Source of the DNA: an uncultured Acidobacteriota bacterium
GTDB lineage: Bacteria; Actinomycetota; Acidimicrobiia; Spongiisociales; ZC4RG35
Direction of reading: 5' to 3'
Length of the DNA: 64,000 nucleotides
Assembly: GCA_963828465.1 (NCBI GenBank)
Contig: CAWHEU010000020.1
Coordinates: forward strand, 192,001-256,000
Program-made: the position numbers and the translations under genes
Shown here: positions 1 to 22,156 of the stretch, one piece after another
Layout of the letters: the number at the start of each line of letters is the position of its first letter
How positions within the stretch are numbered: the stretch's first letter is position 1
The notes under the pieces: model-generated
Told to the model about the DNA's origin: nothing
Database searches by the model: none
What the model saw: the letters and a program-made list of their open reading frames with translations, nothing else

Positions 1-250
1 GGGCTACCTGCAGTGGGTGCAGGGCCTCGCCGCCGGATTCGGCGATGCCGAGGTCTCAGGCGACTGTGAGACGGATATCTCGGCGCTCAGGGCGATCATC
101 GAGGAGAGCAGTTCGATGTCCGACCTCACGATGACCGAAGTGGTCCAAGTGGGCAGCCTGGTGGCTTCCGTCTCCACCGCATGCACCCCGGAGAGGGCAG
201 AGGAGTTCTTTGCCGAGCCAGACGTGGCGGCCTTCCTGGAAAGCCAGTAG
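1..250 (+). CDS. Hypothetical protein, 5'-truncated C-terminal part
   Basis: Open frame from the window edge (GYLQWVQGL...) to TAG at 248-250, followed by a strong hairpin. Confidence 0.6.
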   Translation, partial: GYLQWVQGLAAGFGDAEVSGDCETDISALRAIIEESSSMSDLTMTEVVQVGSLVASVSTACTPERAEEFFAEPDVAAFLESQ

Positions 251-253
251 GAC

Positions 254-279
254 GAGCGGCAACCCTGAGGTTGCCGCTT
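254..279. terminator. GC-rich hairpin terminator GAGCGGCAACC-CTGA-GGTTGCCGCTT
   Basis: Near-perfect 11-bp inverted repeat directly after the stop at 250; could also end the minus-strand sRNA candidate. Confidence 0.65.
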
Positions 280-406
280 GGAGGGGTTCCCGCATTGCCC
301 TGTGAAGCCGGGGAAGCTTCTAGAGGGGGGACTCAATTAGGGCTTTGAGGGACCTGAATCCAATTCTGTACACCCCGAGCCCCCTTGGACGGGCAGAACC
401 GGACTC
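254..406 (-). ncRNA. Candidate small RNA with two C-rich loops (F6/6C-like)
   Basis: TATAGT -10 at 419-414; 13-bp stem GAGUCCGGUUCUG/CAGAAUUGGAUUC; GCCCU/AGGGC stem enclosing GAG-UCCCCC-CUC and GAAGCU-UCCCC-GGCUUC; ends in a terminator hairpin. Confidence 0.6.
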
Positions 407-444
407 ATTTCGAACTATACGCAGTCGCGCTAGTTCGCGAAGAA

Positions 445-1011
445 TCAGGTCTCGAAGTCCTTGTGGGACCTGCTGGCGGTGGGCCCGGTCTGACCCTGAT
501 ACTTGGAGCCGAGCTCGGGCGAGCCGTAGGGGAGGTCGGCCTCGGTCGTCATCTGATAAAAGCTGACCTGGCCGATCTTCATCCCCGGATAGATGGCGAT
601 GGGGAGGGTGGCGACGTTGGACAGCTCCAGGGTGATGTGGCCCTCGAAGCCTGGGTCGATGAAGCCGGCGGTGGAATGGATGAGGAGGCCGAGACGGCCC
701 AGGGACGACTTTCCCTCGAGACGGGCGACCACGTCGTTGCCCAGCTTGACTCTCTCCAGGGTGGATCCCAGGACGAATTCCCCGGGATGGAGCATGAATG
801 GCTCCTCGTCACCCACCTCGACCAGCCTGGTCAGGTCGGACTGGGGGTCGCGTGGGTCGATGAGGCTGTACCGGTGGTTGACGAACACCCGGAACCCGTC
901 ACCCACCCGCAGGTCGACCGAGGACGGCTGGACATACGACGGCTCGTAGGGGTCGATCTGGATCAGACCCGATTCGATGGCCTCACGTATTGAGCGGTCG
1001 GAGAAGATCAC
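445..1011 (-). CDS. dcd: dCTP deaminase
   Basis: [35 protein letters not shown] and KYQGQ motifs. Confidence 0.95.
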
Positions 1012-1023
1012 GGGAAGATGGTA

Positions 1024-1100
1024 GAGCGGGTGAAGGGAATCGAACCCCGCTCCGAGCCATGGGCACTCGCTCGTTGTGAAGCGGGTGAAGGGAATCGAAC
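1024..1100 (-). repeat. Two truncated direct copies of the tRNA-Gly 3' end
   Basis: AGCGGGTGAAGGGAATCGAAC occurs at 1025-1045, 1080-1100 and in the tRNA at 1104-1124; the first copy extends to about 1063. Confidence 0.9.
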
Positions 1101-1174
1101 TGGAGCGGGTGAAGGGAATCGAACCCTCGCTCCGAGCTTGGGAAGCTCGTGTTCTACCATTGAACTACACCCGC
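1101..1174 (-). tRNA. tRNA-Gly (anticodon CCC)
   Basis: GCGGGTGTAGTTCAATGGTAGAACACGAGCTTCCCAAGCTCGGAGCGAGGGTTCGATTCCCTTCACCCGCTCCA: cloverleaf, TTCGA T-loop, encoded CCA. Confidence 0.97.
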
Positions 1175-21251: not shown

Positions 21252-21285
21252 GAAAGGGCCGGCGCGAGCCGGTCCTTTCGCTTTT
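21252..21285 (+). terminator. Intrinsic terminator after bS22
   Basis: GAAAGGGCCGGC-GCGA-GCCGGTCCTTTC followed by GCTTTT. Confidence 0.85.
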
Positions 21286-21330
21286 CTCCCCCCGAAGGGG
21301 GGAGTACCGCCGGAGGCGGGGAGGGGGGAC
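21286..21330. repeat. Short G/C-tract palindromic element
   Basis: CTCCCCCC-GAA-GGGGGGAG, CCGCC-GGA-GGCGG, GGAGGGGG. Confidence 0.5.
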
Positions 21331-21334
21331 CGCC

Positions 21335-22156
21335 CTATTGGCCCTTCAGGTACTTCTCGATCTCTTCGACGAGACGGTCGCCGCGGTCGTCGTCGGCTTC
21401 CTGTTCCAGCCGCTCTACGTATTCCTCGAGCTCGGCGTTTCCCTCGATGGCGGCGTCCACCGTCGACAGGAACTGACGTGAGGCCGAGGCGAGGTCACCG
21501 ATGTCGAGCGTGACACCGCACAACTCCGAGGCCTTGATCGCCAGTGCTTCAGTTGCCGGCGGATACTCCTGATTGGAGAGGTAGTGAGGGACAGCCGCCC
21601 ACACCGAGATCACATCGATTCCGACATTGCCCAGGGAGTGATTGAGCACTCCGAGGATTCCCGTCGGCCCTTCGTATCCCGACGGGAGCAACCCGTGAAT
21701 CGCCAGGTCGTCGGGCCGGTTCGCCGATCCCACCAACGGGACGGGGAGTGTGTGTGCCACCTGACCGATGAAGGCGCCCATGGTCACGGCCCGGCGAACC
21801 CCCATCACCTTCATCACTTCGACCACATCGTTGGTGAACGACTTCCACCGGTAGTGCGGCTCCTCGCCGAGGAGGATCACCATCTCCCGCTCCATGCCCC
21901 TGGCGACGTACAACTCGTTGCGCGGCCAGGAGATCGAACGGATCCCCGTGGCGTCGAGCTCGACTATTGGTCTCCGCACCTGGAAGTCGAAATGATCGTC
22001 AGGGTCGATGATGGCGAACAGCTCGGCATCGAGCTTGTCGAGAAACTCGGAAACTGCCTGACTCGCCGACTCGCCGGCGTCACCCCAGCCTTCGAAGGCG
22101 ACTAGGGCGACCGGGTCCTGGAGGACCGGACGGTCGAGCCATTGCAACGAGCCCAT
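21335..22156 (-). CDS. PAC2 (proteasome assembly chaperone) family protein
   Basis: AFEGWGDAG, DFQVRRP, GEEPHYRW, WAAVPHY, YVERLE. Confidence 0.9.
   Translation of the reverse strand: MGSLQWLDRPVLQDPVALVAFEGWGDAGESASQAVSEFLDKLDAELFAIIDPDDHFDFQVRRPIVELDATGIRSISWPRNELYVARGMEREMVILLGEEPHYRWKSFTNDVVEVMKVMGVRRAVTMGAFIGQVAHTLPVPLVGSANRPDDLAIHGLLPSGYEGPTGILGVLNHSLGNVGIDVISVWAAVPHYLSNQEYPPATEALAIKASELCGVTLDIGDLASASRQFLSTVDAAIEGNAELEEYVERLEQEADDDRGDRLVEEIEKYLKGQ

Follow-up and report, generated by a model that had tools for sequence, protein, structure and literature searches.

The DNA analysed here, referred to as the window, is a stretch of 64,000 nucleotides (64 kb) from contig CAWHEU010000020.1 (assembly GCA_963828465.1, positions 192,001 to 256,000), and the element under study is a structured RNA encoded on its minus strand at 254-419, directly behind dcd, the gene for dCTP deaminase. 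It occupies all of the 194 nt (251-444) that separate dcd from a convergent plus-strand open reading frame (ORF) ending at 250, and it is the immediate same-strand 3' neighbour of dcd. The best explanation of the locus is that positions 250-437 of the minus strand encode a clade-specific structured non-coding RNA (ncRNA) of about 185 nt. All the parts marked in an initial annotation of this DNA are present on the minus strand: the hexamer TATAGT (419-414); a 13-bp stem that starts 7 nt past it and is formed by GAGUCCGGUUCUG (406-394) with CAGAAUUGGAUUC (368-356), three of the pairs being G-U; a second domain in which GGUCCC (354-349) and GGGAACC (291-285) enclose GCCCU/AGGGC plus two hairpins, with the loops UCCCCC (331-326) and UCCCC (314-310); and a terminal hairpin. 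The individual features are the following.

445-1011, minus strand: coding sequence of dcd (dCTP deaminase), an ORF with a match to Pfam PF22769 DCD (E 7.1e-50)
411-437, minus strand: hairpin H0, which sits on the dcd stop region (single-sequence folds and RNAalifold consensus)
355-407, minus strand: P1, a long, imperfect stem-loop that forms the variable 5' domain (minimum free energy (MFE) fold and RNAalifold consensus)
285-354, minus strand: three-way-junction domain comprising P2-P5 (covariance-model alignment A9)
354-347 with 293-285, minus strand: P2, the closing helix
343-339 with 301-297, minus strand: P3, GCCCU/AGGGC
323-334, minus strand: P4 hairpin, GAG-UCCCCC-CUC, which is C-rich motif 1, GAGUCCCCCCUC, and contains CCCCUC
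320-304, minus strand: P5 hairpin, GAAGCU-UCCCC-GGCUUC
278-287, minus strand: C-rich motif 2, ACCCCUCC(AA) (invariant columns A68-C75)
256-277, minus strand: GC-rich terminal hairpin of 9-10 bp, GCGGCAACC-UCAG-GGUUGCCGC (MFE fold)

H0 consists of a 5' arm, (CG)AACUAGCGC, which carries the conserved stop-codon motif ACUAG (in the context (A/G)ACUAG at the end of dcd), a GACU loop and a 3' arm, GCGU-A-UAGUU(CG), which includes TATAGT. In P1, a lower stem of 13-14 bp with the three G-U pairs is followed by an upper stem, CCCG/CGGG, and a G-rich apical loop, AAGGG. The hexamer CCCCUC is common to both C-rich motifs; the last 5-7 nt of motif 2 (CCUCCAA) are single-stranded between P2 and the terminal hairpin, and this motif resembles an anti-Shine-Dalgarno sequence. 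The MFE fold of 250-420 on the minus strand reproduces the described architecture, with -71.5 kcal/mol and z = -3.44, and only 1 of 200 shuffled sequences folds as well. Only 6 nt separate the stop of the convergent gene from the terminal hairpin, which is symmetric and is presumed to be a terminator, probably bidirectional, common to the dcd RNA and that gene.

Related loci were collected with the Dcd protein of the window as query, and the best 80 of 593 confirmed Dcd-encoding stretches were searched; these loci carry L numbers. Blastn and nhmmer recovered the intergenic sequence directly past dcd in 10 of the 80 (L001-L004 and L006-L011). The covariance model R1 (186 positions, 58 pairs), built from the window and the five closest loci, was run against the window plus the 80 Dcd-anchored loci (723 kb) and returned 26 matches at E <= 10, of which eleven are strong (41-212 bits, E <= 1.4e-8): one each in the window and the ten loci just named, all of them on the dcd strand directly 3' of dcd. 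The other 15 (E >= 0.0045) comprise opposite-strand and terminator-only matches, a reduced form in L005 and a match in L074. The second-generation model R3, made from 11 sequences and limited to the 3' domain, gave the same 11 matches (72-123 bits), L005 (31 bits, E 6e-4), L074 (28 bits) and seven further matches at E >= 0.1. L005 has lost the junction and kept both C-rich motifs and the terminator. L074 (E 0.004-0.03) has, by eye, only a terminator-like hairpin and was not counted as a member.

The family thus counted has twelve members, the window and L001-L011, of which six are close and six divergent. The dual motif GAGTCCC-N11-41-ACCCCTC occurs a single time in each of 11 of the 80 loci and a single time in the 64-kb window. 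The Dcd proteins of the members are at least 87% identical to that of the window, and the 69 other loci (at most 77%) lack the element. In all twelve members the element begins at the dcd stop region, whatever gene lies downstream. A repeat or mobile element, such as a repetitive extragenic palindrome (REP) or a miniature inverted-repeat transposable element (MITE), was considered and rejected on copy number, since the 64-kb window and each member locus hold a single copy and no second one was found in the window or the 80 loci; searches of plasmids and phages gave no match to the element. Judged from the sequences searched, the element is confined to one group of uncultured Acidimicrobiia.

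The fold is conserved together with its position. In alignment A4 (11 sequences), 94.3% of 566 cells pair, compared with 84.5% in shuffled alignments, none of 500 of which reaches the observed value. Double changes are seen in 27 of the 58 pairs, against 9.4 after shuffling (0/500) and 4-8 in slid controls, where the partners were moved by 1-3 columns and 28-45% of cells pair. The 3' domain alone (alignment A9) shows 94.4% of cells paired and double changes in 13 of 31 pairs, against 1-4 in the slid controls; these are distributed over P2 (5/8), P3 (2/5), P5 (2/6) and the terminator (4/9), P4 being invariant (0/3). In the terminal hairpin all cells are paired (100%). P1 cannot be aligned in L007, L009 and L010; double changes occur there in 6 of 13 lower-stem and 2 of 6 upper-stem pairs, counted over the 7-8 sequences alignable at those positions. 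Homologues past dcd and covarying helices are what the initial annotation had proposed to look for, and both were found. The MFE folds of the 3' domain, which are independent of any alignment, contain all P3 pairs in 7 of 11 sequences (4/5 in L006, L007 and L009, 4/4 in L011), all P4 pairs in 9, all P5 pairs in 9 (5/6 in L009, none in L010) and all terminator pairs in 10 (7/9 in L008).

The strand on which this structure acts is likewise apparent from the pairs. Forty-eight cells are G-U and 10 are A-C, and 534 of the 566 cells pair on the dcd strand, compared with 496 on the opposite strand, in agreement with the earlier proposal of a strand-specific RNA structure rather than a DNA palindrome. 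The element has no conserved ORF: the longest ORFs on either strand (9-46 codons) are common only to near-identical pairs of members, and the coding of a small protein was ruled out by this lack of conservation. Collectively, the RNA structure is real, conserved, covarying and specific to the dcd strand.

While the helices drift, two unpaired C-rich segments stay invariant, namely GAGUCCC(C) of P4 and ACCCCUCC before the terminator. GAGUCCC of the P4 hairpin is present in 12 of 12 members, including the reduced L005, and ACCCCUCC is invariant in 11 of 11, with ACCCCUCU in L005; ACCCCTCC is also invariant. The C-run of P4 has a predicted unpaired probability of 0.65-1.00 in all 11 sequences, against an overall mean of 0.30-0.44, and that of CCUCC in motif 2 is at least 0.54 in 10 of 11 (0.20 in L008). 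The initial annotation had pointed to twin C-rich loops. The P4 loop is indeed conserved; the P5 loop, on the other hand, is not C-rich in 4 of 11 sequences (L006, L009, L010 and L011), and the conserved partner of the P4 loop is the single-stranded ACCCCUCC. What stays invariant is thus C-rich and exposed, as an RNA that pairs with G-rich or Shine-Dalgarno (SD)-like sequences would require. Two other roles for the loops were considered. The P5 loop, UUCCCCG, was rejected as an anticodon-loop mimic of tRNA-Gly(CCC), since it is not conserved. A kissing interaction or pseudoknot between the G-rich apical loop of P1 and the C-rich loop of P4 may form in the close clade, where the G-runs occur; by eye, they are not conserved in L006 and L009.

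The same exposed hexamer, present twice at fixed spacing, would also suit a protein-binding RNA, in which the CCCCUC repeats dock a C-rich-RNA-binding protein (for example, one with a KH domain) or Dcd itself, with autoregulation or sequestration as the outcome; CUUCCCC motifs, moreover, are also found in the conserved stretch upstream of dnaB in related loci. This explanation is considered very unlikely, because the loci offer no linked protein candidate and C-rich loops that act by RNA-RNA pairing have a direct precedent in the phylum, according to the available text of PMC6486639. A three-way junction beside a nucleotide-metabolism gene also recalls a riboswitch, which would sense nucleotides and control termination or the fate of the dcd mRNA. 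Such a function appears extremely improbable: the element is located 3' of dcd, opposite a convergent gene; its junction linkers, unlike ligand pockets, differ from member to member in both sequence and length; and no riboswitch family of Rfam matches.

The role of TATAGT determines how the RNA is produced. The initial annotation had described a free-standing small RNA (sRNA) with its own promoter, that is, a sRNA gene read from a sigma-A promoter with TATAGT as -10 box, a start near G406 and a primary product some 155 nt long; in this model H0 would terminate the dcd transcript, act as an operator palindrome that covers the -10 box, or do both. TATAGT fits the TANNNT rule of actinobacterial -10 boxes, stands 7 nt from a G and is invariant in the six close members; H0, directly past dcd, could end the dcd transcript; and, in the source excerpts available, type I 3'-untranslated-region (3'-UTR) sRNAs with internal promoters are a known class. 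However, TATAGT is the 3' arm of the conserved hairpin H0. In the six close sequences the arms of H0 do not change, while each of the four loop positions does; 9 of 11 sequences have a G-U at one of the pairs, and the flanking A-U pair is replaced by C-G in L009 and by G-C in L005. Invariant arms, a variable loop and a G-U pair form the pattern of a hairpin and not of a -10 box. Furthermore, the six sequences with TATAGT have near-identical H0 arms and amount to about one observation.

Comparison with the divergent members leads to the same result. Between the dcd stop and the 3' domain, a TANNNT hexamer is found in 6 of 12 members, always as TATAGT in the H0 arm, and in none of the six divergent ones; within the last 160 nt of dcd it occurs in 1 of 12 only (L007, at -94). 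The control genes behave differently. TANNNT stands 15-20 nt before tRNA-Gly in 9 of 12 members, including all six divergent ones, and 8 of 12 have a TANNNT of the CTAC(C/G)AT type no more than 60 nt upstream of dcd. In four of these eight the box is 12-15 nt before the start (leaderless), and in the other four it is 31-32 nt away, with a GGAG-type ribosome-binding site in between. The corresponding upstream features of the window are two.

1101-1174, minus strand: tRNA-Gly(CCC), conserved upstream of dcd
1018-1023, minus strand: TACCAT, candidate -10 box of dcd, 6 nt before the GTG start (1011)

The GTG start of the window's dcd has no SD sequence, and the position of TACCAT 6 nt before it implies a leaderless dcd mRNA. 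A consensus promoter scan of 1-1300 found no promoter-like (two-hexamer) site, TATAGT lacking a -35 partner, and H0 has no U-tract. Taken together with the constant position of the element 3' of dcd, these data make an independent promoter rather unlikely as a general explanation, and co-transcription of the RNA with dcd is the parsimonious reading.

The attachment to dcd is also visible in the stop region itself. In all twelve members 75-79 nt separate the conserved TAG from the 3' domain, and ACUAG occurs in three reading-frame contexts. The dcd stop is the TAG of ACUAG in eight members and a TAA just upstream, overlapping ACUAG, in two; in the window and L001 it is a TGA (447-445 in the window), 15 nt 5' of the conserved in-frame TAG (432-430). 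Since the stop is TAG, TAA or an earlier TGA across members, ACUAG is conserved as nucleotides and not as a codon. A mundane cause applies here, in that an ORF in a GC-rich genome runs on to the first AT-rich element. The C-terminal tail of Dcd beyond the conserved DF varies from 2 to 7 residues across members.

With respect to known families, the RNA belongs to none in Rfam. At gathering thresholds, Rfam 15 matches only tRNA-Gly in the 64-kb window (1104-1174, minus strand), and no family matches the RNA in the 11 related loci. At E <= 10, window positions 200-500 give nothing on the minus strand, with 6C, F6, 6S and Ms1 all unlisted; the five chance matches there are on the plus strand (E 7.1-8.7, 9-15 bits against thresholds of 38-97). 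Nor does any family, 6C included, match the RNA at E <= 10 in L011 (5540-5760) or L009 (5545-5760). The RNA is accordingly rated as a new family of a known kind, in line with the earlier suggestion of novelty, whereas the resemblance to the mycobacterial F6 sRNA proposed at the same time was not confirmed, no likeness to it having emerged from the Rfam comparison of the minus strand.

The closest system in the phylum is 6C RNA (RF01066; B11 in mycobacteria), also an actinobacterial ncRNA with exposed C-rich segments, in which hairpins with C-rich loops are followed by a terminator. In the available text of PMC6486639, 6C represses panD and dnaB through pairing of its C-rich loops with G-rich ribosome-binding sites, with no chaperone; in that of PMC5014011, the 6C RNA of C. 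glutamicum is reported to have a strong SigA/SigB promoter of its own. Membership in 6C was rejected, as none of the window, L009 and L011 matches its covariance model at a cut-off as loose as E <= 10. The present RNA is about twice as long and has a three-way junction and a long 5' stem. Of the two conserved C-rich hairpin loops that characterise 6C, only that of P4 is conserved (11/11), the other conserved motif being a 3' single strand in place of the P5 loop. Finally, this RNA is attached to the dcd stop codon, in contrast to the separate strong promoter described for 6C in the excerpt cited.

A second comparison concerns 3'-UTR-derived sRNAs, which are divided into type I, with an internal promoter, and type II, released by processing. 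The RNA resembles MicL and UhpU in that it lies directly past the stop codon on the mRNA strand, shares the terminator of the mRNA and combines a conserved seed-like segment near the terminator with a variable 5' part. The location typical of this class, on the same strand and directly 3' of the gene with conserved synteny, is found in 12 of 12 members. As to type, the TANNNT hexamer of a single sub-lineage (6/12), its absence from the six divergent members and the positive controls at other genes are the data that bear on an internal promoter. The phylum is not known to have Hfq; known examples of the class are, by contrast, mostly Hfq-dependent enterobacterial RNAs in the source excerpts available. 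RoxS/RsaE-type sRNAs of Firmicutes offer a further parallel, since they carry several exposed CCCC motifs that pair with SD regions. They differ in phylum and fold and are free-standing genes, and Rfam gives no match to them here. In the partial texts returned by a literature search, no paper on regulatory RNAs in Acidimicrobiia was found, and none on UTR-derived sRNAs named dCTP deaminase.

Considering the conserved fold and strand, the fixed position past dcd and the invariant CCCCUC segments with their predicted exposure, the preferred reading, held with moderate confidence, is that of a dcd 3'-UTR RNA of one Acidimicrobiia clade that serves as the source of an sRNA and pairs through its C-rich segments with SD-like sites. 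The transcription unit would have the order tRNA-Gly(CCC), dcd and RNA, the last as its 3' end, and the RNA would be transcribed as the dcd 3' UTR from the promoter of dcd and/or tRNA-Gly, the transcript ending at the GC-rich hairpin 277-256. The dcd 3' UTR probably yields a stable sRNA, which may accumulate intact or once it has been cut in the AU-rich stretch that joins H0 to P1. In the sub-lineage of the window, TATAGT in H0 may add an internal start. Both C-rich motifs would then pair with G-rich SD-like sites on mRNAs (GAGGGG/GGAGG) and block translation, in the manner of 6C and without homology to it.

Several observations weigh against this reading. Both ends of the RNA, like its stability, are predictions, and there are only 11-12 homologues, from one clade, six of them close. 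The covariation counts rest on A4 and A9, which were fitted to the model. With a plain MAFFT alignment of the 3' domain, RNAalifold misses the junction: apart from P4 and the terminator, it gives just an alternative AGGG/CCCU pairing, in which motif 2 would be sequestered. The opposite (plus) strand also folds below the shuffled mean (z = -1.87, 11/200 shuffles). The P5 loop, as described above, is unconserved. Concerning the promoter, H0 could equally be a DNA palindrome, TATAGT with its 7 nt to a G in the six close members is plausible as an actinobacterial promoter, and the use of TANNNT as the -10 box in Acidimicrobiia is taken from other Actinobacteria and from the internal controls. The transcript end is affected as well. 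The initial annotation had a terminator following the RNA, and of the hairpin-plus-U-tract signature of an intrinsic (Rho-independent) terminator the GC-rich hairpin is present and covarying, but it has no T-run, and a terminator scan of 1-1300 made no call. Terminators without a U-tract are often reported for Actinobacteria.

A search for targets found none. In the 64-kb window, GGAGGGGT occurs 4 times against 4.7 expected and AGGGGGGACT (at most one mismatch) 6 times against 7.2 expected, with no complement of the motifs before ORF starts; as only 64 kb of the genome are covered, this search says little either way. A 6C-like targeting of dnaB was also tested and rejected, the ribosome-binding sites in six related loci being GAGAG/GAGGA and not GAGGGG; dnaB is absent from the 64-kb window. 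The lack of targets in the window and at the dnaB ribosome-binding sites is compatible with a purely cis-acting 3' UTR, which would shield the dcd mRNA against 3' exonucleases and halt transcription from the convergent gene, with no target in trans. It accords with an element that is always on dcd and always faces a convergent gene, and with the symmetric terminal hairpin so close to the neighbour's stop. A stabiliser, however, needs structure and not sequence, yet the unpaired C-rich segments are invariant, even in the junction-less L005; an exclusively local function is consequently regarded as doubtful.

The region upstream of dnaB in six related loci was noted separately. It is conserved and non-coding, and lies on the minus strand of each locus (L004 2843-3222, L008 7308-7687, L006 7094-7473, L009 7095-7474, L011 8517-8896 and L010 7784-8163). 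It carries TTTCGCG / CGCGAAAAAC motifs followed in 6 of 6 by a TANNNT hexamer (TAAGTT, TATGTT or TAGGTT), past which there are two CUUCCCC(C) motifs with hairpins. The L009 copy has no Rfam match at E <= 10. This region, which does not occur in the 64-kb window, may be a dnaB leader or a second C-rich RNA.

Regarding the gene neighbourhood, the gene beyond the RNA is convergent in all members and variable in identity: a lipoprotein-like ORF without a Pfam match in the window and L001-L003, a Kup-like gene in L005, DnaB in L004, L006, L008 and L009, a small ORF followed by DnaB in L010, and TetR in L011. Because the convergent neighbour differs in this way, the linkage of the RNA is with dcd. 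On the other side, tRNA-Gly(CCC) is found 5' of dcd in 11 of 11 member loci and may be the first gene of the dcd transcription unit. The distance between the two genes ranges from 2 nt (L007) and 32 nt (L009) to 736 nt (L003), about 1 kb (L008) and 2.8 kb (L002); the start of dcd only 2 nt past the tRNA in L007 implies co-transcription. A 21-mer is present in three exact minus-strand copies in the window (1025-1045, 1080-1100 and 1104-1124), where none is expected by chance. It corresponds to the T-arm/acceptor 3' end of tRNA-Gly(CCC), and the two extra copies, between tRNA and dcd, look like att-type scars from integrative elements; the variable spacer fits an insertion hot spot at the tRNA 3' end. 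Two further observations stand apart. The records of L001 and L008, whose Dcd proteins are 97% and 88% identical to that of the window and which both carry the RNA, are labelled Acidobacteriota, whereas other close records are labelled Acidimicrobiia, probably a labelling inconsistency. At about 21280-21335 on the plus strand, the window contains a CUCCCCCC-GAA-GGGGGGAG hairpin followed by GGGGAGGGGGGACC, terminator-like in appearance.

A broader proposal, regarded as speculative and unlikely, is that the dcd 3' UTR is a translation-coupled riboregulator that feeds a regulon of GAGGGG-type ribosome-binding sites. The terminating ribosome would melt H0, so that translation of dcd would set the folding, cleavage or release of the anti-SD-like sRNA, and the flux of dCTP deamination would be broadcast to mRNAs with such sites. 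If true, this would be the first described sRNA system of the class Acidimicrobiia, whose members are abundant in soil and water and mostly uncultured. Methodologically, the case shows that a -10-like hexamer can look like a promoter when it is in fact part of a conserved hairpin. The family, a candidate for Rfam, links a gene of nucleotide metabolism with possible control at the post-transcriptional level. With it, the 6C principle of G-C pairing without a chaperone in high-GC bacteria would reach a deep branch of the Actinobacteria and the setting of a 3' UTR.

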